From: an uncultured Gammaproteobacteria bacterium
Lineage (GTDB): Bacteria > Patescibacteriota > Microgenomatia > UBA8517
DNA length: 64,000 nucleotides
Assembly: GCA_964395115.1 (NCBI GenBank)
Contig: CAYMZX010000001.1
Location: forward strand, 14,751 to 78,750
Direction of reading: 5' to 3'
In this document: positions 905 to 47,810 of the stretch, piece by piece
How positions within the stretch are numbered: position 1 is the first letter of the stretch
Layout: each line of letters begins with the position of its first letter
Translations under genes and position numbers: made by a program
The notes under the pieces: generated by a model
Database searches by the model: none
Told to the model about the DNA's origin: nothing
What the model saw: only the letters and a program-made list of their open reading frames with translations

Positions 905-1744
905 ATGACTCCTGTGTATGAAGGTGCAAGATTCCCGATTTTTGTTTCCTTAATTATAACACAAATTCCTTTTAAGTCAAACTATGGGATGATGAATTTA
1001 CTGCCTCTTGACAGCTTTTTTGAGCTCTCTATACTCAAAAAAGTTACTGCCATGGATGTCGATCTTGCCCAAAAAGCGGTTGCCGCTGCTCTCGCCAGGA
1101 ATTGGAAAGAAGCCGTTAAACTGAATCGCGAAATTCTCAAAATAGACCCCAACGATACCGATGCTTTAAATCGAATGGCTAGGTCCCTGGCAGAATTGGG
1201 AAATCGCAAAAGAGCCGTCATGCTTACAAAAAAAGTCCTAAAAATAGACCCTTTTAATGGTATCGCCCTAAAGGCTCTAAAAAAATATCAAGAATCATCG
1301 GAGGGAAAATCACCGCCTCTTACTAAACCCAACGCCGAAGCCTTTCTGGAAGAACCGGGTAAAACCAAAATAGTGACTTTGCTTCATTTAGGAGATCCTT
1401 CGCTTCTTTCTAAACTTTACTGCGGCGATGAAGTCAAATTTTCCATTGGCAGCCACAGAATATCAGTAGTCACTCTGGACAACAAATATATTGGACGGCT
1501 CTCGGATGATGTTTCTGCCCACTTGCGAAAACTTATCAAGGAAGGTAATGTGTACAGGGTGCTTATTAAATCAATCCAGCCTCGCAAGGTTAAAGTTTTT
1601 ATCAAAGAAATAAAGAGAGCCAAAAAACTGGCGAATATTCCCTCTTTTTTGCCAGAAAAAGTCGACTACATTTCTTTTACCCCGCCTGAATTAGTGACCA
1701 AAAGGAATGACCTAACCTTGAATTTTCCGGAAGAGGAAATCTAA
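905..1744 (+). CDS. TPR-repeat protein (true start possibly at Met near 1053)
   Basis: Tandem TPR-like helical repeats (AVKLNREILKIDPNDTDALNRMARSLAELGNRKRAVMLTKKVLKIDPFNGIALKAL). Confidence 0.6.
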   Translation: MTPVYEGARFPIFVSLIITQIPFKSNYGMMNLLPLDSFFELSILKKVTAMDVDLAQKAVAAALARNWKEAVKLNREILKIDPNDTDALNRMARSLAELGNRKRAVMLTKKVLKIDPFNGIALKALKKYQESSEGKSPPLTKPNAEAFLEEPGKTKIVTLLHLGDPSLLSKLYCGDEVKFSIGSHRISVVTLDNKYIGRLSDDVSAHLRKLIKEGNVYRVLIKSIQPRKVKVFIKEIKRAKKLANIPSFLPEKVDYISFTPPELVTKRNDLTLNFPEEEI

Positions 1745-2681: not shown

Positions 2682-4379
2682 TTAAGTTTTCGATTTTAAT
2701 AACCTTAATTTTCGTATTCTTTCGCTGATTTCCTCTTTAGATTTCCCCATCGATGAAAAAATTCCCCTAACAATAGCTACTGCCGCTTCAAATTCGGGTT
2801 GAATTACCCTATCTACCCCAAGAACTTTCAATTTATCAACATCTTCGTCCAGATGTGCCCGAGAAACAATTTTTACGGATGGGGCGATAGTCTGCACTTG
2901 AGTAATAACCTCCTCTTGAGCAACCCGATCCGGAATAGCTAAAACGATTGCCTTTGCCTCCCTTATACCAGCCGCCTCAAGAACTTCGATCTCTGTTGGA
3001 TCCCCATAAATAACTTCCCGGCCCTCTTTTTTTAAATTATTAACAATCTTTTGATTATATTCGACCGCAATAAAGGAGGTATTGGCTAAATCAAGAGCTT
3101 TTCCTACCCATCCGCCAATTCGACCAAACCCACAAACAATAATGTGGTTTTTAAAATTTTCACGCCTAATGAGGTTTCTTCTGTCCCAACCAAGAAGGAA
3201 TTTATTAAATACAGGCAACTTCGTAGAAATGTTTCTTATTTTTTTCCAAAAAGGAAGAATACTTCTGAATAAAAAGGGGGTCAATATCAATGTTAAAAGG
3301 GCGGTGGCAATTCCTACGGATATCATTTCAGCCGATAGTAGTTTCAAAACTCCTGCCTTGGAGAAAATGATGAAGGAGAATTCTCCAACCTGGCTCAGAC
3401 CAAGACCGGCGGCAACCGCCGTTTTTCCATGGTAACCCAAAAAAAGAGAAACAAAAAAAACAACGACAAATTTAACTAAAAGAACCAAAATTACCAAAGC
3501 CAAAATGAGACCGAAGTGATTAAATATTGTCAAAGGAGAAACCAAAAATCCCATGGTCACAAAGAAGACTGATACAAAAAGATCTCGCAAAGGCCTTGTT
3601 TCGGCAAAAACAGCATGATTTTCCTGGCTTTCCGAAATGACCACTCCGGCTAGGAAAGCCCCGAGGGCCGCGGAGACTCCGAAAAGGGAAGTTATTCCAG
3701 CTGTTCCCAAAGCCAAAGCCACCGCAGCCAAAACCAAAAGTTCTCTAGAGTTAGTAGCCGCAATTCGATGGATTACAAAAGGGGCGGCGATTTTACCAGC
3801 AACAACGGCGATGGCTACCAGCGTTGAAGCAAGAACAAGGGCCTTCAGTGCGGTAATAATAACTGCTCCTTCGAATAGCGCTAGCGATGAAACGATTACC
3901 ATAATCGGAACCACCGCCAAGTCTTGGACCAAAAGCCAACCTATCATTACTTCTCCGTGAGCGGTGTCGGTTTCTCCCCTATCGGCCAGTATCTTTACTA
4001 CAACGGCTGTTGAGGAAAGAGAAAATCCAAGTCCAAGGATTAAAGCGGCTAGAGAGTCAATACCCAAAAAAATCAGGAGAAAATAACTGAATAAGGAAAC
4101 TAAAACGATTTGGATCGAGGCCCCCAGAAGAGCAACCTTTAAGACTCTGCCTAAACGGGTCAAAGAAAGTTCCAGTCCAATTGAAAAAAGAAGAAGAATC
4201 GCTCCAATCTCCGCCAGTTTTTCTACACCCGAACCGGCAAAGGGAAAAGTAGCTCCAAATACAACACCGGCAATAATATATCCCAAAAGTGGTTGAAGTT
4301 TCATCAATCTAGCTATCAAGCCGCCAGAAAGCGCGGCGATCAAGACCAAGAAGAGACCTCGGAAAAAGGCAGGATCCAT
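2682..4379 (-). CDS. CPA2-family cation:proton antiporter (Kef-type) with C-terminal TrkA-N/RCK domain
   Basis: Polytopic N-terminal Na+/H+ exchanger-like membrane domain. C-terminal Rossmann motif IIVCGFGRIGGWVGKAL...EYNQKIV typical of TrkA-N. Confidence 0.8.
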   Translation of the reverse strand: MDPAFFRGLFLVLIAALSGGLIARLMKLQPLLGYIIAGVVFGATFPFAGSGVEKLAEIGAILLLFSIGLELSLTRLGRVLKVALLGASIQIVLVSLFSYFLLIFLGIDSLAALILGLGFSLSSTAVVVKILADRGETDTAHGEVMIGWLLVQDLAVVPIMVIVSSLALFEGAVIITALKALVLASTLVAIAVVAGKIAAPFVIHRIAATNSRELLVLAAVALALGTAGITSLFGVSAALGAFLAGVVISESQENHAVFAETRPLRDLFVSVFFVTMGFLVSPLTIFNHFGLILALVILVLLVKFVVVFFVSLFLGYHGKTAVAAGLGLSQVGEFSFIIFSKAGVLKLLSAEMISVGIATALLTLILTPFLFRSILPFWKKIRNISTKLPVFNKFLLGWDRRNLIRRENFKNHIIVCGFGRIGGWVGKALDLANTSFIAVEYNQKIVNNLKKEGREVIYGDPTEIEVLEAAGIREAKAIVLAIPDRVAQEEVITQVQTIAPSVKIVSRAHLDEDVDKLKVLGVDRVIQPEFEAAVAIVRGIFSSMGKSKEEISERIRKLRLLKSKT

Positions 4380-4430
4380 TCTCTTTTAGTTTAAGAAAGA
4401 TTCGTTAACGTGTAAAGAGGTTGTGAAATT

Positions 4431-5168
4431 TTAGGCTTTCGCCGATAGATTTCCCAATGCCAATTTCAGTACCACCGGCAAATCAGATTTAAAAGACCTT
4501 TTCTTCCCATCAAGAACAAATTCTATAGCGGCGGCGTGCAAAAAAAGCCTCGGGCACCAAGTTCTATCTTGTCGACTTGTTTTACGACCAGCATAAAATT
4601 CATCGGCAACAACGGGATGGGCGAGAAACTTGAAGTGCACCCTTATTTGGTGGGTTCTGCCAGTAATCGGCCGGATTTCCACCAATGAGTATTCCTGGTT
4701 GTCTTTTGTGAAATATCTATTTATTTGATAAGCGGTTTCAGCTGATCTACCTCCGGGCAGTACGCCGAATCGGTCCCGCCGCCAAGGCAGTCTGCCAATC
4801 GGAGCTTTTATTTTCCCTCTTTCGGGTTCCAATCTCCCATGGATTAAGGCTAGGTAGGTTTTCTTTATTTTTCCTTTTTTAAATTGTTCCTGAAGTTTTC
4901 TAAAAATGTCTGCCGTTTTCGCTACCAGTAAGAGACCGCTTGTTTCTTTGTCTAACCGATGAACAATGCCCGAACGTTTTTCTTTGTTTTTCGCCAAGGG
5001 ATAGTCAAATCTTGTCAACCATTTTTGAATTATCTTTTGTCCCTTGGCCGTTTCTGCCTCGTTTACTGTCCAACCCGCTGGTTTGTTCAAAACAAGAATT
5101 TGCGAATCTTGAAAGACTACCTTAGGTTCCACTTTACTGCTCTTCTCTTTTGGCGGCGTCCTTGGCAC
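4431..5168 (-). CDS. RluA-family 23S rRNA/tRNA pseudouridine synthase
   Basis: Catalytic motif HRLDKETSGLLLVAKT with conserved Asp and surrounding RluA-type fold motifs. Confidence 0.85.
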   Translation of the reverse strand: MPRTPPKEKSSKVEPKVVFQDSQILVLNKPAGWTVNEAETAKGQKIIQKWLTRFDYPLAKNKEKRSGIVHRLDKETSGLLLVAKTADIFRKLQEQFKKGKIKKTYLALIHGRLEPERGKIKAPIGRLPWRRDRFGVLPGGRSAETAYQINRYFTKDNQEYSLVEIRPITGRTHQIRVHFKFLAHPVVADEFYAGRKTSRQDRTWCPRLFLHAAAIEFVLDGKKRSFKSDLPVVLKLALGNLSAKA

Positions 5169-5538
5169 AAAGAGTGGTTTCTGGATAAACCATCAATCTG
5201 TCGGTATCGATAAGCTGACCGCAATCCTCGCAAACCCCGTATTTCCCTATCTTAATTCTTGATAAAGCTTTCCTTGTTTGAATGATATTCCGTTGAAGTT
5301 GCTGCTTTATGGCCGAAGCTCTTGCGTGACCAAACTGCTCTGCCGCTTCGGTGTCGGGTGAAGCGTTATCAATGATTCTATTGGTATCTTTGAATGGATC
5401 TTCTTTTTCAATTTCTTTTTTTCTTTTCTGAAGGCTTTTCAGCCGCTCCTGCAAAAATTGAGCAACCGGGTTTAGAACAGTCGCCGGAAATCTTATTTCT
5501 GAATTTCTATTTATTATTTCCTTTTTATTTTTACTCAT
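5134..5538 (-). CDS. DksA/TraR-family C4 zinc-finger protein
   Basis: C-terminal CEDCGQLIDTDRLMVYPETTLCAKD (C-x2-C...C-x2-C) zinc finger after a coiled-coil-like N-terminus. Confidence 0.7.
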   Translation of the reverse strand: MSKNKKEIINRNSEIRFPATVLNPVAQFLQERLKSLQKRKKEIEKEDPFKDTNRIIDNASPDTEAAEQFGHARASAIKQQLQRNIIQTRKALSRIKIGKYGVCEDCGQLIDTDRLMVYPETTLCAKDAAKREEQ

Positions 5539-6137
5539 GGGCTCTTCCTTGCCAGATTATATACGATGAGAAAGATAATAAAAGCCATCGTCCCAGAAAT
5601 TGCAGTCTCCCATTTTCCACTAAAGGATATCACATTTGGGAAAAAGGGGGCAAATCCAGCTCTGAGAAGGAAAAAAAAGAATATCGTAACTAAACCCGAA
5701 AAGCCTAATTTACCGGATTTATACCAGGCAAAGTATTTATAATGCGAGTCTAAAAAGGCAAAAAGGGTGAGTAAACAAACAACACTGAAAAAAGCCAGGA
5801 ATGAAGATAAACTCGACCTAACAATTGAATCCTTAAAGAAAACCAATCCCAGCCATGGCAAGAGGGCTAAAATTGCCGCTTCGATTGCCTCGTAGGGCCT
5901 GAACTTATACTTTAATAAACCGGCCGTCACTCCCAAAAGAGATCCCGCAAATTCGGACCAAAACCACCAATGGGGGAAAAATTTCAATGAAATCAAATAT
6001 CCTAGTCCTATTCCAAAAAGCAAATAAAAACAGATGCTAAAGATTGAACTTGAAGGATAATCTTCTTTAAGTTTTTTCCAAAAAAGGTAGAAAAAAAGAA
6101 ATGCGCCAAAAAAATTGATAACAATATTGATTATCAT
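5535..6137 (-). CDS. polytopic integral membrane protein, unknown function
   Basis: 200 aa with ~6 hydrophobic helices and no recognisable catalytic motif. Confidence 0.45.
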   Translation of the reverse strand: MIINIVINFFGAFLFFYLFWKKLKEDYPSSSIFSICFYLLFGIGLGYLISLKFFPHWWFWSEFAGSLLGVTAGLLKYKFRPYEAIEAAILALLPWLGLVFFKDSIVRSSLSSFLAFFSVVCLLTLFAFLDSHYKYFAWYKSGKLGFSGLVTIFFFFLLRAGFAPFFPNVISFSGKWETAISGTMAFIIFLIVYNLARKSP

Positions 6138-30673: not shown

Positions 30674-31183
30674 CTAGGAAATGGCCGCAAGGGCCCTCAA
30701 ATTTATCTTTACATTTTCCAAGGCCGCTGCTCGAGATGCTTTGGCTAGGTAGAATGCACTTTTAGTGTCGGAAATTGCATTTTTGTTTCCGATTACAATC
30801 ACCCTCTTTGCCAAAGATATTATTTCTTCGCCTAATTTAGCAACCTTTGCCGGAACATCGGCGGCATTCTTCAACGCTGTTCTAATTTTTTTTCTGTCCT
30901 TTTCTCTATAAGCCAACATTACCCGACTAAAAGCATTTACATCTTCATCTGTCAATTTGAGAAGTTCCTTTTTGATTTTCGTTGCCTTAACTTTTATTCG
31001 CTTTATTTCTAATTGTTCAGCATTGTACCCCGCCTTTCCAATTGTTAGGTTGCAAACCATCTCTATTAAGGCGGCGGCAATCGCCCCCGACAAACCAGCG
31101 GCTGCTCCTCCCCCAGGAATTGGAGATTTACTCGCTAAATCTTCAAGGAACTTTTCGATTTTTAGATTTTTTATCTTACTCAT
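30674..31183 (-). CDS. formimidoyltetrahydrofolate cyclodeaminase / methenyl-THF cyclohydrolase-like protein (FTCD C-terminal domain)
   Basis: 169 aa all-helical; PIPGGGAAAGLSGAIAAALIEMV motif typical of the cyclodeaminase domain. Confidence 0.65.
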   Translation of the reverse strand: MSKIKNLKIEKFLEDLASKSPIPGGGAAAGLSGAIAAALIEMVCNLTIGKAGYNAEQLEIKRIKVKATKIKKELLKLTDEDVNAFSRVMLAYREKDRKKIRTALKNAADVPAKVAKLGEEIISLAKRVIVIGNKNAISDTKSAFYLAKASRAAALENVKINLRALAAIS

Positions 31184-32069
31184 ATAATCTCTTTTCCAAT
31201 ACCTGGTCCGACTTAAAATCTTTGATTTTAAAGGTGGTTTTTACGGCTCTGACTAGTGCTTCCAAAGGAATCATTCCGTAAATCTCCGAGCTCTTTATGC
31301 CGACTCTAAATTTTTGGGCTTCTTTCTGAATCACCCGATATGCTTCATCAAAATTTGTTTTTTCGAAATCCACCAAATTCATCGATACTTGAGCAAAACC
31401 TCCTACTTTAAATCCTAAAGCCTTAACGCTTGGCAATCCTCCTCCTTTTTCCCTTATTCGCGCCGCTATTTTCTTGGCTATATCAATGTTTTTGGTATCA
31501 AGATTGACATTGAACGCTACCAAGTATTTCCTAGCTCCGATTACTATTGCTCCAGCTGTTGGATGCATTTTTGAAGGACCGTAATCTGGTCTCCTATCAG
31601 GATTTGTTTCTATTTCTTTTGACAATCCTTCATATTCGCCTTTTCTAATATCGGCAAGGTTTACCCTGTCCTTTCTTTTAGCAGCCGCCTCATAAAGATA
31701 GACTGGAATTTCTAATTCTCTGGCCACCTGTTTAGCTAGTTTATTCGATAAAACTACGCATTCGGAAAGGGTCACTCCGGCAATCGGAACGAACGGGACA
31801 ACATCCGTCGCCCCTATTCTTGGGTGTTCTCCTTTGTGCTTCCTCATGTCGATAAGCTTGGTAGCTCTCTTTATCATTTCGAAAGCAGCAGCCATCACCT
31901 TGTTTGGAGCTCCAACGATAGTTACAAGTGAGCGGTTATGCGATTTATCCCACTCGATATCCAGAATTTTAACTCCCTTAATTTTCTTGGCGGAGTTGGC
32001 AATCTTTTTGATTTTTGAAAGATTTTTACCCTCCGAAAAATTTGGTACACACTCAACCAGTTTTTGCAT
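31176..32069 (-). CDS. glutamate formimidoyltransferase (FTCD N-terminal domain)
   Basis: MQKLVECVPNFSEGKN... at the N-terminus is the formiminotransferase signature. ~300 aa, two subdomains. Confidence 0.7.
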   Translation of the reverse strand: MQKLVECVPNFSEGKNLSKIKKIANSAKKIKGVKILDIEWDKSHNRSLVTIVGAPNKVMAAAFEMIKRATKLIDMRKHKGEHPRIGATDVVPFVPIAGVTLSECVVLSNKLAKQVARELEIPVYLYEAAAKRKDRVNLADIRKGEYEGLSKEIETNPDRRPDYGPSKMHPTAGAIVIGARKYLVAFNVNLDTKNIDIAKKIAARIREKGGGLPSVKALGFKVGGFAQVSMNLVDFEKTNFDEAYRVIQKEAQKFRVGIKSSEIYGMIPLEALVRAVKTTFKIKDFKSDQVLEKRLYE

Positions 32070-32095
32070 ATTGTGGATATTATATCTAATCTAAA

Positions 32096-32455
32096 GTCTC
32101 GATGCTAGAACTTAATCTCTCTATAAACCCATTGGCGATTAGTCTTTCCTGAATAATCCTTTTTGTTTCAGCTAAGACTTCCTCGTAGGGACAATTGGCA
32201 TTAATTATTTCCCAACGACCATTATCATTAGCTCGAGCAAGAGTGAGGTAGGCCACCTCACCTCCCGATGAAATTTTTTAGCTTCTCTATCAAGTCGGTC
32301 TAAGTTTCCTGCCTTACTTCTTCTTCTTAAACCGACTTCAGGGGGCAAGTCAAAAAGTAGAGTTAAATCCGGGATAAGGTCTTGGGTTGACCAATCATTT
32401 TTTCCCCTCCGCCCTCGGGTCCTTCTAAGGTAATTAGATATTCTGGATATTTCAT
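32096..32455 (-). pseudogene. tmk: thymidylate kinase remnant (two frameshifts plus ~95-aa internal deletion)
   Basis: Minus-strand frames give MKYPEYLITLEGPEGGG (P-loop start), then after a shift DLTLLFDLPPEVGLRRRSKAGNLDRLDREAKKFHREVR, then after another shift YLTLARANDNGRWEIINANCPYEEVLAETKRIIQERL. The DRY and LID regions are absent. Start overlaps the upstream stop as ATGA. Confidence 0.75.
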
Positions 32456-33237
32456 CTTAAATACCCTCGCGGCCTGTAGTTTTGTATTTCTGATGGAACA
32501 ATCAAATAATCAGGAATTCTCCTTTCTTCGCCCTTGAAAAGGGCATATCGGACCTGGTTCATAAACTCCTCATATAAAAGTGCTTTGCCTGTTTTTTCGC
32601 TCCCAATCCTAACAAAGTTAAATCCGTCTCCTTTTATTGTTATAATCCTTACATGGTCGGAGTGTTGTCTAACCCAATCTTCGTGCAGACCAATAAGCTT
32701 CGTCCAAAATTCTACCTTTTCTTCTAATTCTACTTTTCGACCCGGGTCTTTAGCAGCCCGCTGATTAAGTCTTATTATCATTTCAGTTAAAGACAGCTGG
32801 AGATAAACAACCAAATCAGGAACGGGTAGTTTTCTCGTAAGACCGTCATAATATCTTTCGTATTTTTCCATTAAAGCATTGTTCTTACCCAACCGAAGAA
32901 GAGCATAAAATCTGTGCTGCCAAGGAGGGGGTTCAGAAACAACCGGTCCGTTTTCTAAAAGGTTCGGTAATTGAATAAGTTTTCTATAAGAGTCGTCAAA
33001 AAAAAGAGTTTGGACAGCATAAGAATGATGGTCGGGATCTCGGTAATAATCCTCAAACTTACCAAGCTCATCAGGAGAAAGTTCCCTAAGATGGGTAAAC
33101 CCAAGTCTCTCGCTAATAATTTCTCCTAAGATAGATTTCCCTGAAGTGGGAACTCCCATAATGGTAATCCAAAGATGGCGTTTTTCTCGCTCTGGCGACA
33201 TTAAACTTTCCCCGTTTACTAAATCTTCTTTGCTCAT
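32452..33237 (-). CDS. P-loop kinase of the deoxynucleoside kinase (dNK/dCK/dGK) family
   Basis: P-loop ITIMGVPTSGKS, and DP-x-x-H-S-Y-A-x-Q-T-L-F resembling the dNK substrate-binding segment (…DPKKWAMPFQSY…). Confidence 0.5.
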   Translation of the reverse strand: MSKEDLVNGESLMSPEREKRHLWITIMGVPTSGKSILGEIISERLGFTHLRELSPDELGKFEDYYRDPDHHSYAVQTLFFDDSYRKLIQLPNLLENGPVVSEPPPWQHRFYALLRLGKNNALMEKYERYYDGLTRKLPVPDLVVYLQLSLTEMIIRLNQRAAKDPGRKVELEEKVEFWTKLIGLHEDWVRQHSDHVRIITIKGDGFNFVRIGSEKTGKALLYEEFMNQVRYALFKGEERRIPDYLIVPSEIQNYRPRGYLR

Positions 33238-33239
33238 TT

Positions 33240-34157
33240 TCAGACTTTCGGATATGGCGTTTTTAGTGTATGCGTCCCATCCGGCATATGTACTGGCTCA
33301 AAGTCGCCAAATAGAATAGGTGATACCGTCACCAAACATCTCCAAATATTAAACGCCACTTTTCTTATCATTAGGGCCGAATGTTCGCTGGCACGCATAT
33401 TAATAATATGCCTCCAAGCCCGGGCGTTGCCGGAAACAATTATTGGCGCTTCCGTCTCGTTAGGAAGACAATCCCGAGCTTCCTGTTGAATTTTCTTTCG
33501 CAGATCCACTTTTGATCCGCCCGCCAGCAATGATAGGCCTTCTTTCTGAAGTTCCAGAAGCCTCTGGGCTCTTTTTTTATATTCTCCGGCCACCAAATCG
33601 ATCCAGTTTTCAAACATTCGATGTAAGATTTCGTCATTTTGATATACTTCCCCTTCAACAAACCTTAACGTTTCCCCGGAAACATAGCGCTGGCTCACCT
33701 GGGAATAAGCCATACCTGCCCGATGGCGTACCAATTCATGGGTAAAAGCCCGGTTTACCCCATAAATCAAAAAGGTAAAGTTAGCATGTTCTAAAATTGA
33801 ACCATGACCGGAATTTTTAGCATTTTCAAAATATTTAATAGCCTGGTCATTTAGGGTTCTATTAGGTCCAAAACTCAAATAACAAAGTTGACCGGCGGCT
33901 TTGCAAAGAGTTTCCGCGGAAGGAAGAGGGGTCGTGTCTTCGAGATAATTAATAAATTTAAAATCTTCGGGAAAGCTTTTTAGAAACCCTGCCATTCCCC
34001 TAAGATCAACCCAGGGAACAGAAAGAAGAGCTAATCCAGCTCGCTTAAAATAAGGAGTTTTCTTTTCTGTATAAAAGACTTCGGAGTCTATCACCGGCAA
34101 ATACCCTTCTTTGGTTTCTATGGTGTATCCGCCTAACTTTAAATCTCTCTCTACCAT
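33240..34157 (-). CDS. thyX: flavin-dependent thymidylate synthase ThyX (with ~70-aa N-terminal extension)
   Basis: ThyX signature RHRAGMAYSQVSQRY (RHR-x7-8-S) plus HGSILEH and ARDCLP motifs. Confidence 0.85.
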   Translation of the reverse strand: MVERDLKLGGYTIETKEGYLPVIDSEVFYTEKKTPYFKRAGLALLSVPWVDLRGMAGFLKSFPEDFKFINYLEDTTPLPSAETLCKAAGQLCYLSFGPNRTLNDQAIKYFENAKNSGHGSILEHANFTFLIYGVNRAFTHELVRHRAGMAYSQVSQRYVSGETLRFVEGEVYQNDEILHRMFENWIDLVAGEYKKRAQRLLELQKEGLSLLAGGSKVDLRKKIQQEARDCLPNETEAPIIVSGNARAWRHIINMRASEHSALMIRKVAFNIWRCLVTVSPILFGDFEPVHMPDGTHTLKTPYPKV

Positions 34158-34220: not shown

Positions 34221-36272
34221 TTACCCAACCCGATTTCTGATATTATTTTCGGTTTCTCCCCGCTTAGGATTCTTCCAGCTGGCCCATTTACAAGCGGGAA
34301 AGCGTGAACAGCCAAAAAATTTTTTGCCCTTCAGGGTCTTCTTTACAATCACCTCACCTTTATTACAGTTCGGGCATTTCAGCCCAATTTTTTCAAGAAA
34401 TTTTTCCGAATAATCGCATTTCGGGAAAAGTGAGCAAGAAACAAATTTTCCAAACTTTCCTATCCTTACAACTAATTCTCCTTTTCTGCATTTTGGGCAT
34501 TTTTGACCGAGTTTTTCAACTTCTATTTTTATTCTTTCCGAATGTTTTCCTACCATTTCCAACTTTTTTGAGAAAGGGTGCCAAAATTTTTTTATAGTTA
34601 CTACCCACCGTATTTGTCCGTTTGCTATTTTATCCAGATCATCCTCCATTTCTGCAGTAAAGCGATAGTCGAAAATGTCGGGAAAGTTTTCTACCAAAAA
34701 ATCATTTACTGCCACGCCAACTGGTGTCGGAACGAATTTACCGTCTTCTTTTTCGACATAGTTTCTGACTTGAATAGTTGAAATTATCGGCGCGTAAGTA
34801 GAAGGTCTACCAATCCCCAATTTTTCTAAAGTTTTGATAAGCGAGGCCTCATTATATCTTGGCGGAAATTCTGTAAATTTTTGCGACGAATCTATTTTTA
34901 CAAGCTTTAGGGCTTCGCCAACTGAAACTTGCGGTAGGTGGTTAGCTTTTTCTTCATTTTTTTTGTGGGGAATAACTTTTCGCCAACCATCAAATTTAAT
35001 TACCTGTCCTTTCGCCTTAAGCAGATATTCTTGAGAGCTTTTTGCCAGAACATTAATAACGGTTTCGTCATAAAGACTGGAAACCATTTGACTAGCTACC
35101 AATCTTCTCCAAATGAGGCCATAGAGAACTTGGGCATCACGGCCATATTTCTTGCTTTTTATTTTGTCGGACATCAGAGACAGTTTGGTCGGCCTGATTG
35201 CCTCGTGAGCCTCTTGAGCGACTTTAGATGTTGCCTTATAAAGTCGGGGTCTTTGGGACAAATAATCTTGGCCGTATAAATCTTTTATCAGTTTTCTGGC
35301 TTTTATCAAAGCGGTTTTGGAAATTGCCATGGAGTCAGTTCGGTGATAGGTAATAAGTCCTTTTTCGTATAGCCTTTGGGCAATAGCCATGGTCTTTTTG
35401 GCAGACCAGCCAAAAATCCTGGCCGCCGCCTGAGTCATGGTTGATGTGGTAAAGGGAGGGTACGGATTTTTTCTTATTTCCTTCTGGCTGATATCTAGAA
35501 TTGAGTATTCGGCTTTTTTTAGTTGTTCGGTAATCTTTTTTGCTTCTTCAGAATTTCTTACTTCAATCTTCTTGGTTTTAGTACCAATGAACCTCACAAT
35601 AAAGTTTTTATCTTTCCTATTTTTGGGTTTTACTTCACAAGTTATTTCCCAAAATTCTTCGGGTTTAAATTTTTCAATTTCTCTCTCTTTTTCAACAATA
35701 AGTCTGACTGCCACCGATTGGACCCTTCCTGCCGAAAGACCCCGTCTAATCTTTCTCCAAAGAAGGGGGGATAGTTTGTACCCCACTAATCTGTCCAAAA
35801 CTCTTCTCGCCATTTGGGCCTCAATCAGGTTTTTATCGAGATTCCTTGGTTTTGTAATCGCTTCTTCCACCGAATCTTTAGTAATCTCATGGAAGACAAT
35901 ACGCTGTAAAGTTAAGAACCGGGGAACTGAAGAATCTAGAAGGTTTTCTTTTGTTTCTTGTCTCCTGGGTTCTTTAGTCTCGCTAAGTATCTCTGCAACA
36001 TGCGAGGCAATTGCTTCTCCTTCCCGGTCCGGATCGGTGGCCAAATAAATCTTGTCGGCTTTTTGTGCCAACTTTTTAATTCTTTCGACAGACGCTTGAG
36101 CTTTAGCCACAGGTAAATATTTCGGTTTGAAATTATTCTGTATATCGATTCCTAATTCGCTTTTGGGGAGGTCCATAACATGACCCAGTGTCGCTTCTAC
36201 CGAATAGTCGTTACCTAAAAATTTTGATATGGTCCGAGCCTTAGTTGGAGACTCAACAATGATAAGATGCAT
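34221..36272 (-). CDS. topA: DNA topoisomerase I with C-terminal zinc ribbons
   Basis: Toprim N-terminus (LIIVESPTKARTISKFLG), catalytic Tyr region, three C4 zinc-ribbon repeats (CPKCRKGELV..., CPNCNKGEVIV..., GCSRFPACK). Confidence 0.9.
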   Translation of the reverse strand: MHLIIVESPTKARTISKFLGNDYSVEATLGHVMDLPKSELGIDIQNNFKPKYLPVAKAQASVERIKKLAQKADKIYLATDPDREGEAIASHVAEILSETKEPRRQETKENLLDSSVPRFLTLQRIVFHEITKDSVEEAITKPRNLDKNLIEAQMARRVLDRLVGYKLSPLLWRKIRRGLSAGRVQSVAVRLIVEKEREIEKFKPEEFWEITCEVKPKNRKDKNFIVRFIGTKTKKIEVRNSEEAKKITEQLKKAEYSILDISQKEIRKNPYPPFTTSTMTQAAARIFGWSAKKTMAIAQRLYEKGLITYHRTDSMAISKTALIKARKLIKDLYGQDYLSQRPRLYKATSKVAQEAHEAIRPTKLSLMSDKIKSKKYGRDAQVLYGLIWRRLVASQMVSSLYDETVINVLAKSSQEYLLKAKGQVIKFDGWRKVIPHKKNEEKANHLPQVSVGEALKLVKIDSSQKFTEFPPRYNEASLIKTLEKLGIGRPSTYAPIISTIQVRNYVEKEDGKFVPTPVGVAVNDFLVENFPDIFDYRFTAEMEDDLDKIANGQIRWVVTIKKFWHPFSKKLEMVGKHSERIKIEVEKLGQKCPKCRKGELVVRIGKFGKFVSCSLFPKCDYSEKFLEKIGLKCPNCNKGEVIVKKTLKGKKFFGCSRFPACKWASWKNPKRGETENNIRNRVG

Positions 36273-45866: not shown

Positions 45867-47810
45867 ATGGAAAAAGAATCTTTGTCACGCCGAGAGTTCT
45901 TAAAGTTTTTGGGGGCAACAAGTGCAGCAGCAGTTTATGGTCTTTCCCCCACCCCTCTTCGTGCTGGTGTTGAAACTGTTTTACAAGCTCCAGAGGAAGG
46001 CGATCCTATTTTAGCCAAAGATTTACTCCTATTACCCGAAAAAACCGAGGAATGTATGGCACCAGTCACTTTTGAGTCTCCAGTAACGGTGGTGGATTTT
46101 CCCTTATATCGTTACCGTTCACACGGTCCGGGCACTTTCGACTATAATCTGGAACTACCCATAAACTTTTTTGTCTTACCCCCTGGTTTTAATACTTTTT
46201 GCAAGGATTTTTATTATTTTCGAGACCCCTCCTGTAGAAACGAGGAGGAGGAAATTATCAGAACGACAATTTTGCCGGATACGATGGGAACACACAATTT
46301 ATTGATAGCCTTTCTTGATAGAGGGAAATTTAACAGGCTTGATGGCTATGTTCCTTCTACTGTTGCCTGTAATAGAAATCAAGAAGTTTTGGGAACAATG
46401 ACTTATTGGGTTGGCGAAGACGGAAAAAGAATTTATCCAAACAAAATAGGAAATTTACTTATTGCTTTCGAGGAACTTCTTAAGTGGCAGGAAAGAAATG
46501 GTCCGCTAAAAGCTGGCAAAACATATTCGTACCTTAATCTTATAGGGCTCTCAACTTCGGAGGTTTCTTATCTTCCCGGTTATAATAGCGGGCATGCTGT
46601 CGTAAGAGCGGGGGGTGTTTGCGCTGGAGCAACTGCATTAGCGAATGCTTTTTGGAGATTAAGTCAAAACCTCGGAATGCCTTTTGAACAAGTATGTGTT
46701 GGGGGAAGGGAATCTCATGACAATCCATATGCTTTAGGCCCTTTTGCCCCCCCTTTTGATATAACCGACACTACTGTTTATATAAGCCCTGGAAGTAGAG
46801 CTGACTTGTTAATGCGCCCGCCTTGTGATTGTTACATTTCGCCTCTTTTTGCTATTGTTCCAAATCGAGTTCCGACATCGGAAACTGCTCCTGATGGGTT
46901 AGGCGTAAGGGATCCTCAAACAGGTCGAATTCTTTTGCGATCAGACGCAACACTTATAATGAATGTTGCGATTACACGCATACCTCCAAGAGTAACTTCA
47001 GAGGATTTAAGAGAGATGAGAGAGGCTTATTTTGCTTTTCGCCAAAGAAGAAATGCTAGGACACTTGAGATAATGGGTCGGGGGGCACGGTTTGTAGAAG
47101 ATCACCAATGGAGAGAAAATAGTAACCCCCCCAATTATGTTGTTGAGTCGATATATCCCGCTATTAATTTTAGACCAGACGTGTTTGAACATGAGATGGA
47201 AACATCCCCTTATTTGCAAGATGTGAAAGCTTTAATGGAGATTTTAAATTCAGTAGACCAATATTCTTATCCTGATATGGCGGCTTTGGTGCGAAATTCT
47301 AGTTGGTACCACGACAAAATGCAAAGAGGTTTACTAACGCCAAAGATAGAAAGAGGAATCGATCAGTTGAATTTTACAAGAGTAGAGGGCCAACCTGTAC
47401 AATGTGTTCAATGGGCTATTTTATTGGCCTCTTTGAATTATGGGGATTCTCCTCTGACAATCGGAGCCGCTATTAGAGGTCCTAACGATTTGATACCCTC
47501 ACATCTACTTGCGGGCCGGTATCGTGCGGTAGCTCCAAGTCTGATAGGAGGCTCTCTAATTGCGGACCCAAACTTAAAGATTGAGGAAATAAATCCGGGA
47601 GATTTGTTATTGATTAAAAACACTAGAGTAGGTCATGTAGGGGTTTTCTTGGCCGTAAAAGACGTTGGAGGTAAACGTTATGTCTTGGGTACCGATGCTA
47701 ATCGCCAAAGTACTGGAAGAATTGTTACTTTTGTTCTTACAGACGAGAATTTTGATTTTTTTTGGGGTCCACCGCCAAATAAAAAGATAATTTTGACTAA
47801 AAATAGATAA
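45867..47810 (+). CDS. Tat-signal exported protein with C-terminal CHAP/NlpC-P60-like cysteine peptidase domain
   Basis: N-terminal twin-arginine motif SRREFLKFLGATSAAAVYG. The C-terminus has a Cys...His pair in papain-like context (PVQCVQWAILLAS ... GDLLLIKNTRVGHVGVFLAV ... VLGTDAN). Confidence 0.45.
   Translation: MEKESLSRREFLKFLGATSAAAVYGLSPTPLRAGVETVLQAPEEGDPILAKDLLLLPEKTEECMAPVTFESPVTVVDFPLYRYRSHGPGTFDYNLELPINFFVLPPGFNTFCKDFYYFRDPSCRNEEEEIIRTTILPDTMGTHNLLIAFLDRGKFNRLDGYVPSTVACNRNQEVLGTMTYWVGEDGKRIYPNKIGNLLIAFEELLKWQERNGPLKAGKTYSYLNLIGLSTSEVSYLPGYNSGHAVVRAGGVCAGATALANAFWRLSQNLGMPFEQVCVGGRESHDNPYALGPFAPPFDITDTTVYISPGSRADLLMRPPCDCYISPLFAIVPNRVPTSETAPDGLGVRDPQTGRILLRSDATLIMNVAITRIPPRVTSEDLREMREAYFAFRQRRNARTLEIMGRGARFVEDHQWRENSNPPNYVVESIYPAINFRPDVFEHEMETSPYLQDVKALMEILNSVDQYSYPDMAALVRNSSWYHDKMQRGLLTPKIERGIDQLNFTRVEGQPVQCVQWAILLASLNYGDSPLTIGAAIRGPNDLIPSHLLAGRYRAVAPSLIGGSLIADPNLKIEEINPGDLLLIKNTRVGHVGVFLAVKDVGGKRYVLGTDANRQSTGRIVTFVLTDENFDFFWGPPPNKKIILTKNR

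Follow-up and report, generated by a model that had tools for sequence, protein, structure and literature searches.

Thymidylate kinase (dTMP kinase, Tmk), which converts dTMP to dTDP, is regarded as a universal and essential step in the supply of DNA precursors, and its gene as a marker gene. The subject of this report is a tmk remnant of 370 nt (32086..32455, minus strand) in a 64,000-nt stretch of contig CAYMZX010000001.1 (assembly GCA_964395115.1), hereafter the window, in which the remnant directly follows an intact gene of the deoxynucleoside kinase (dNK) family, the family to which mitochondrial thymidine kinase (TK) belongs. Among the closest described cases is Pseudomonas putida KT2440, in which tmk is a pseudogene and an unrelated T4-like dNMP kinase, PP_1964, encoded on an island and gained by horizontal transfer, supplies the function (Wirth et al. 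2023, PMC10653934). The window resembles it in carrying a tmk pseudogene despite the essential activity, and would likewise owe the function to a different, probably horizontally acquired kinase, with the replacement tied to the same locus. However, in P. putida a 65-kb island splits tmk and the T4-type dNMP kinase has been proven by genetics, whereas the tmk of the window has suffered an internal deletion and a frameshift, its sole neighbouring kinase is of the dNK family with no T4-type kinase in the window, and the case is known from sequence alone.

Three further comparisons place the two genes. The type-1 TKs of HSV-1 (herpes simplex virus 1) and of VZV (varicella-zoster virus) combine thymidine and thymidylate kinase activity and have been grouped with mitochondrial TK (PMC1636055). 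One enzyme thus carries both dT to dTMP and dTMP to dTDP, a model for a neighbour replacing Tmk, but the kinase in the window gives no match to the herpesvirus TK family of Pfam at E<=1, lacks the DRH/ERS arginine and is known through its sequence and a structural model. With the deoxyadenosine kinases (dAKs) of known structure (2JAQ, 2JAS, 2JAT and 8PUU) it shares an aligned Walker A motif, catalytic Glu, Tyr/Gln and LID arginines, although identity reaches only 18-23%, the DRT/DRS arginine is missing, the LID is five residues longer, a C-terminal extension of about 50 aa is present and translational coupling links its gene to thyX and tmk. The remnant itself derives from the canonical dTMP kinase family (PF02223/TIGR00041) and sits in the slot of intact orthologs, but is spread over three frames and has lost the Walker lysine, DRY and YQG.

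Anatomy of the tmk pseudogene

Like all genes relevant here (topA, thyX, the kinase gene, ftcD-N, ftcD-C, rpsB, tsf, frr, rseP and proS), the remnant lies on the minus strand. Intact tmk orthologs measure 672-690 nt, and of their approximately 224 codons 121 are left. Fragment A (32405..32455; MKYPEYLITLEGPEGGG) comprises the 17 codons from the start codon to the Walker A glycines and is 82% identical (14/17) to the start of the Tmk at the related locus L002. A codon-level comparison with the tmk genes of L002, L003 and L021 locates the deletion junction at the GAAAA within a G4A6 run (32400..32404), where the stretch that separates the Walker glycines from the 'LNDW' segment has lost about 304 nt, corresponding to about 102 codons (ortholog residues 18-119/120). 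Fragment B, in the second frame (32256..32399; NDWSTQDLIPDLTLLFDLPPEVGLRRRSKAGNLDRLDREAKKFHREVR), runs from NDW through PDLT..LD and a LID-like segment (RRRSKAGNLDRLD) to FHREVR, and is 63% identical to the L002 Tmk over 54 aa (tblastn). A 1-nt deletion (32255..32256), at which the window reads GTG AGG TGG CC and L002 GTA AGG GAA GAG, then shifts the frame to fragment C (32086..32255), which carries the C-terminal third (..AYLTLARANDNGRW...SSSIETLD) as far as the original stop (..AYLTLARANDNGRWEIINANCPYEEVLAETKRIIQERLIANGFIERLSSSIETLD). Fragment C is listed as an open reading frame (ORF) of 56 aa and is 52% identical to the L002 Tmk over 52 aa (tblastn).

The sequence-only reading of this DNA had recognized a Tmk P-loop start and a C-terminal third over three frames, and had proposed a three-frame alignment to Tmk profiles. 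Joined into one sequence, the fragments do match PF02223 (E 1.2e-9; 113-183 of the 185 positions in the profile), and with the orthologous Tmk of a relative as tblastn query fragments B and C are found together at E 4e-25 and fragment A at E 1e-3. The joined sequence falls below the TIGR00041 cutoff (38.3 against 83.25 bits), and no single ORF of 200-230 codons is present. The ATGA noted earlier was also seen, the tmk ATG (32455) overlapping the kinase TGA (32454..32452) by 4 nt. Three details required correction. The end of the remnant, previously placed at 32096, is at 32086 with the stop codon included, and of the middle part of about 95 aa thought to be missing together with DRY and LID, DRY is indeed gone, but the LID is kept in fragment B and the loss amounts to the 102 codons or so given above.

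The Walker lysine, REPGG, DRY and YQG went with the deletion. The remnant still has its PDLT..LD strand as well as its arginine-rich LID segment and its C-terminal third, and the latter two align with those of intact Tmks. What remains of Walker A reads EGPEGGGEK and does not conform to GxxxxGK[ST], the lysine codon having disappeared at the junction. As the Walker lysine, DRY and YQG are deleted and a second frame shift follows, no active enzyme can arise from the remains. The remnant occupies the position of the intact tmk at L003/L004, L021/22 and L023/24, that is the kinase-to-ftcD slot with the same 4-nt overlap, and is a genuine tmk pseudogene. A programmed frameshift or a split but functional Tmk was also considered, and is ruled out by the physical absence of some 102 codons, including those for the Walker lysine and DRY.

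A different explanation is that the deletion and the frameshift are errors, or belong to a defective subpopulation, and that the real population carries an intact tmk. The data are assemblies rather than reads, and the frameshift seen at L002 stems from one Logan contig. However, the remnant is identical in three separate assemblies: the window contig (79 kb), a 49,093-nt JGI contig (Ga0212092_1000462; 3300022548) and a 2,417-nt JGI contig (Ga0209102_1010527; 3300025794) present in two samples, each of the latter two with 0 mismatches to the window across the remnant. Losses of 304 nt and 1 nt at two places are moreover atypical of assembler error, and a comparable tmk stub at the loci L005/6/7 (below) is the same in three samples. 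An assembly error, which the sequence-only reading had named as what would overturn it, is thereby ruled out, and the broader explanation by artefact or minority variant is highly improbable.

Repeated loss of tmk and turnover of its cassette

The loci L003/L004 show the gene order MreB-PBP-DprA-TopA-ThyX(305)-kinase(288)-Tmk(223, intact)-FtcD-RpsB-Tsf-Frr, also with a 4-nt overlap of kinase and tmk. Their kinase is 44% identical to that of the window, and the ThyX of L003 is 71% identical to its counterpart there. Because L003/L004 keep an intact version in the same gene order, the window locus can be read as a decayed thyX-kinase-tmk cassette, in agreement with the former operon of these three genes proposed earlier, and gene order indicates that, for cassettes of this type, an intact tmk is ancestral.

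Two other loci with a kinase of the same subfamily carry a broken tmk. At L002, whose kinase is 67% identical to that of the window, a full-length tmk is broken by one 1-nt deletion between GAGG and CTTGGG (single contig, from SRR22387954). This site falls inside the stretch that is deleted in the window, and the lesion is thus a different one. At L005/6/7 (kinase 28% identical) the spacer between kinase and ftcD is just 105 nt long, identical in three contigs from three samples (ERZ27254791, ERZ27254851 and JGI 3300025313), and opens with a 16-codon tmk stub (MRNKSFTYTYKFATNI, ending in a stop codon) that overlaps the kinase stop. The stub corresponds to the opening 16 codons of the L008 Tmk (MRRKLFNYTYKFETNP...; PF02223 E 2.6e-25), which is encoded downstream of a sister kinase. 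The kinase gene is intact at all three broken loci, as is the upstream thyX-type gene as far as each contig reaches. Judged from these alignments, tmk has been disrupted independently in at least three lineages with this kinase subfamily (window, L002 and L005/6/7). The kinases of L008 (509..1243) and L005 (721..1455) have the Walker loop GVPASRKTT, with Arg for the second Gly, and the L008 Tmk (1240..1728) reads GIDGAGSTT and is without the Walker lysine; the L008 tmk may be a fourth compromised copy.

The remnant is 61% identical in amino acids to the L002 Tmk (dN 0.33, dS saturated), with about 73% nucleotide identity at the first two codon positions, compared with 41% at the third. Its identity to outgroup Tmks (41-44%) is close to that of the L002 Tmk (44-48%). 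The strong codon-position asymmetry and the near-equal distance to the outgroups show long purifying selection followed by a recent inactivation of the window tmk, in line with the recent loss suggested before.

When further loci were collected with FtcD-N as anchor, the slot between topA and ftcD proved variable within conserved surroundings, the identity to the window being 65-69% for TopA, 74-85% for FtcD-N and 67-75% for RpsB. Among L014-L024 and the window, the slot holds thyX(305), a long thyX (520-560 aa) or thyA; a dNK, of the window type or of another, a type-2 TK, or kinases of both kinds, in some loci as a dNK::TK fusion; a tmk that is intact, broken or missing; and occasionally inserted genes for dCTP deaminase, dUTPase or PIN-domain proteins. 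Two lineages are without any tmk in the slot: L015, with thyA-dNK-TK-PEP-utilizer-ftcD, and L018-20, a widespread lineage (Woesebacteria RBG_19FT_COMBO_42_9 and over 20 further contigs), with DCD-DCD-thyX(537)-[698-aa dNK::TK fusion]-ftcD. There is no tmk in the cassette of GCA_001792155.1. The order is topA-thyX(560)-TK-tmk-x-PIN-ftcD at L016, thyX(541)-dNK-tmk-x-PIN-ftcD at L021 and dut-ThyX-like(524)-dNK-tmk-ftcD at L023. The kinases of these anchored loci fall to 22-29% identity and are not detected by tblastn at E<=1e-5.

The kinase gene of the window (32452..33237) and that of L002 (498..1289) agree at 56% of third positions and synonymous sites (dS 1.25), whereas the third positions of the flanking ftcD-N and ftcD-C agree at 46% and 35%, respectively, and are saturated. 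That the kinase genes are closer to each other at synonymous sites than ftcD-N and ftcD-C are points to an exchange of cassette genes among lineages, and suggests that it took place later than the divergence of the flanks. On the basis of the loci compared, the topA-ftcD slot in Woesebacteria is a hot spot at which thymidylate genes are swapped, fused and lost.

Some of the proteins encoded in the slot are unusual in their own right. The 698-aa fusion (3888..5984 at L018, also at L019 and L020) consists of a dNK part (residues 115-266) and a type-2 thymidine kinase part (354-540), besides N- and C-terminal parts without assignment. The long ThyX-like proteins of about 520-560 aa encoded 5' of the kinase (L006 168..1766; L023 2963..4537; L002 2..496) have nil or weak Pfam Thy1 signal (E 1e-3 to 2e-3, in the C-terminal half), with an RHR motif in one of them, and may be duplicated or divergent ThyX. 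A small ORF without annotation and a PIN-domain gene between tmk and ftcD (L016 4296..4992; L021 5351..6017), which replace the TATAAT box found there in other loci, look like a toxin-antitoxin pair.

The neighbouring kinase and the phosphorylation of dTMP

The kinase gene (32452..33237, 261 codons) is intact and its product belongs to a rare subfamily of the dNK family. The protein scores 62.1 bits against PF01712 (gathering cutoff 27, E 7.8e-17), and at E<=1 Pfam offers only dNK and generic AAA domains. Its AlphaFold2 model (pLDDT 89.3) was compared with known structures by Foldseek, in which the top matches are the deoxyadenosine kinases 8puu (Giardia) and 2jat/2jas/2jaq (Mycoplasma mycoides), then Drosophila dNK (Dm-dNK) and deoxycytidine kinase (dCK); the best-match scores are a sequence-profile E of 5e-28 for 2jas, a TM score of 0.78 for 8puu, and a Foldseek E of 9e-11 with TM 0.78-0.86 on the target. 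Thymidylate kinases (TMPKs) match weakly (E 2e-4, TM 0.48-0.6) and rank 46th or lower. That the kinase might be a diverged Tmk paralog was considered as well, and is ruled out by profile and fold, both of which are those of a dNK.

In a search of 1.84 billion representative proteins, 12 clusters of the subfamily reach E<=1e-30, and their number is 25 if the threshold is E<=1e-10; a word-indexed protein search gave just two close homologs of the kinase. Scanning the GTDB representative genomes twice with kinase alignments revealed no relative; of the metagenome scans one was empty and the other gave distant generic dNKs (25-41% identity, unrelated contexts), and a scan of viral contigs gave one distant dNK. 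A 19-sequence kinase alignment was too divergent for patterns, and literature searches found nothing relevant on tmk or dNK in Patescibacteria, in bacteria of the candidate phyla radiation (CPR) or in Woesebacteria, nor anything on the dNK 'ERS motif'.

The Walker A motif of the kinase is GVPTSGKS. The catalytic Glu (E52), the nucleoside-site Gln (Q76), the LID residues R160, R167 and E170, and also R115, are invariant in the subfamily, and Y64/Y65 align with the YY of the M. mycoides dAK. An arginine of the ERS/DRY motif is used at the acceptor site by both dNKs and TMPKs. In the window kinase this arginine is absent: the ERS of dCK and the DRT of the M. mycoides dAK align with N-G-P and the DRS of the Giardia dAK with S-E-P, and neither aligned position holds an Arg that is conserved in the subfamily. 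The LID exceeds that of solved dNKs by five residues, and a structured C-terminal extension of about 50 aa (pLDDT >90 for residues 220-250), without counterpart in the aligned solved dNKs, follows the point near residues 212-216 at which alignments to PDB structures stop. The extension carries the subfamily-specific motif IPxxIxNxRP (P248..P256; 32470..32496), conserved in two kinase alignments. That a type-2 TK takes the same position at L016 fits a predicted role of the kinase as a thymidine/deoxyuridine (deoxynucleoside) kinase that would feed ThyX and Tmk.

How the organism obtains dTDP without the tmk of the cassette had been left between three routes by the sequence-only reading: a second tmk, a takeover by the adjacent kinase, or import. 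ThyX, and probably the kinase through salvage of thymidine or deoxyuridine, would still make dTMP, and if dTMP is still made, a dTMP kinase presumably must exist. The reading that we prefer, with confidence and doubt about evenly balanced, is compensation by a kinase gene elsewhere in the genome. This gene, which we infer, would lie outside the window and encode either Tmk, as a second copy or a replacement, or some other (d)NMP kinase, would have been gained in the flux of genes to which the cassette owes its reshuffling, and would make the tmk of the cassette redundant. Such compensation fits the gene flux at the slot, the P. putida precedent and the two lineages in which the slot is without tmk, so that any tmk they have must lie elsewhere in their genomes.

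Several observations weigh against this preference. No second tmk was found in the 64 kb by tblastn with the orthologous Tmk (E<=10), nor any holB-linked tmk, T4-like dNMP kinase or other NMP kinase; the four Walker-A ORFs of the window encode the dNK-like kinase, DnaX, YchF and one unrelated protein at 46500. The question of a second tmk raised earlier is thus answered for the window by the tblastn search and the scan of Walker-A ORFs. Furthermore, a whole redundant cassette elsewhere predicts equal decay of thyX, kinase and tmk, yet tmk alone was struck in all three cases, a pattern with a probability of about (1/3)^3 = 0.04 under random single hits (rough arithmetic). All three disruptions also stand beside the same rare kinase subfamily (3/5 lineages), against 0/3 lineages with other kinases and a tmk. 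This hints that the disruption of tmk is tied to that kinase, although the association is not significant (one-sided Fisher about 0.18 over 8 lineages, by rough arithmetic).

The same observations bear on non-orthologous displacement, according to which the window-type kinase acts on thymidine or deoxyuridine and on dTMP as well, with Tmk redundant and decaying repeatedly. The three independent tmk wrecks each lie directly 3' of a member of this rare subfamily with the kinase always intact and tmk alone decayed, and in the fourth member, L008, the kinase is followed by the Tmk with the replaced Walker lysine. Cassettes lacking tmk pair a dNK with a TK (fused in one of them) and L016 pairs a TK with Tmk, which puts the dNK in the place expected of the Tmk partner. 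The longer LID with R160, R167 and E170, the invariant R115 and the C-terminal extension are features peculiar to the subfamily, and the HSV-1/VZV type-1 TKs provide a precedent for thymidylate kinase activity (PMC1636055). Against this, sequence and fold are those of a deoxynucleoside kinase with only weak matches to TMPKs, the Glu, Tyr and Gln that bind the nucleoside have been conserved, the ERS/DRY arginine is replaced by NGP or SEP according to the alignment, L003/L004 keep an intact tmk beside a kinase of the same subfamily, and the association comes from eight lineages and falls short of significance. Displacement is a live alternative, though rather unlikely. Its more specific form is to be viewed as tentatively, if not a shade more so: the rare subfamily, so far met nowhere but in the topA-ftcD slot at Woesebacteria-type loci, would be a two-step kinase (dT/dU to dTMP to dTDP) that makes Tmk dispensable.

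The third route assumes that the organism no longer phosphorylates dTMP and relies on a host or partner cell for dTDP or dTTP, which would be expected of a dependent CPR episymbiont. A reduced nucleotide metabolism is typical of CPR bacteria, and no dTMP kinase is discernible in the window. However, import is quite unlikely because all three lineages with a broken tmk have kept thyX (dUMP to dTMP) and the kinase intact; a synthesis of dTMP would be pointless without its use, and no nucleotide transporter was seen near the locus. Of the three routes import is thus disfavoured, and a kinase gene elsewhere is the one that we continue to prefer, ahead of the neighbouring kinase.

Flanking genes and wider meaning

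Upstream of the remnant, topA (34221..36272; Pfam Topoisom_bac, Toprim and Zn_ribbon_Top1) forms the conserved flank in all related loci. It is followed by an intact thyX of 305 codons (33240..34157; Pfam Thy1 E 3e-39), which lies above the TIGR02170 NCBIfam equivalog cutoff (115.9 against 87.9 bits) and whose translation contains the RHR motif (VRHRAGMAYSQVSQRY); 2 nt separate its stop from the kinase ATG. Downstream lie the genes for glutamate formiminotransferase (FTCD_N/FTCD), ftcD-N (31176..32069; Pfam E 5e-73), which forms the conserved downstream flank, and for formiminotetrahydrofolate cyclodeaminase (FTCD_C; 30674..31183; Pfam E 8e-48). Each of the related loci examined has these folate one-carbon genes (30674..32069) directly 3' of its thymidylate cassette, which may reflect a functional link to the need of ThyX for methylene-tetrahydrofolate. 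The closest FtcD-N proteins (70-85% identity) are labelled Candidatus Woesebacteria or Patescibacteria by their sources, and by this similarity the organism is assigned to Candidatus Woesebacteria.

A TATAAT box (32079..32084) stands directly 3' of the tmk stop and 9 nt 5' of the ftcD ATG. Of 10 related loci, 8 (window, L002, L003, L005, L014, L015, L018 and L023) keep it as (G)TATAAT, ending 8-10 nt 5' of the ftcD ATG. It goes unflagged by a simple promoter scan as it has no -35 match. The tmk stop codon abuts the box, which all three tmk deletions have spared. The ftcD gene appears to have its own promoter, which suggests a nearly leaderless mRNA, and a polar cost of tmk loss is therefore not expected.

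Other candidates at the locus were discarded. A foreign island is ruled out by composition, the GC content of the cassette (39.8-42.7%) being about that of the window (41.9%), and a surplus of promoters or terminators by counts equal to those in shuffled sequences. There is no riboswitch or other RNA in the remnant 5' of the folate genes (no Rfam match at E<=1), and no gene on the opposite strand, the plus strand being without ORF of at least 30 aa within 32100-32450.

As a feature, the remnant is an ordinary pseudogene in a reduced genome, to which its recurrence beside a rare kinase and the fast turnover of the cassette add interest. In such genomes, automated metabolic reconstructions would call tmk 'absent' or mis-annotate its fragments. 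At least three separate breaks of tmk beside an intact rare kinase and a thyX-type gene constitute a natural experiment on the replacement of an essential enzyme. Should compensation come from an unlinked gene, the locus would remain a record of a thymidylate cassette with rapid turnover in CPR bacteria. If, instead, the function has passed to the neighbour, this kinase would parallel, in a cell, the bifunctional kinases of herpesviruses and bring the dNK family a new enzyme activity, and the three tmk wrecks, should a two-step kinase prove true, would be successive snapshots of an ongoing non-orthologous displacement.

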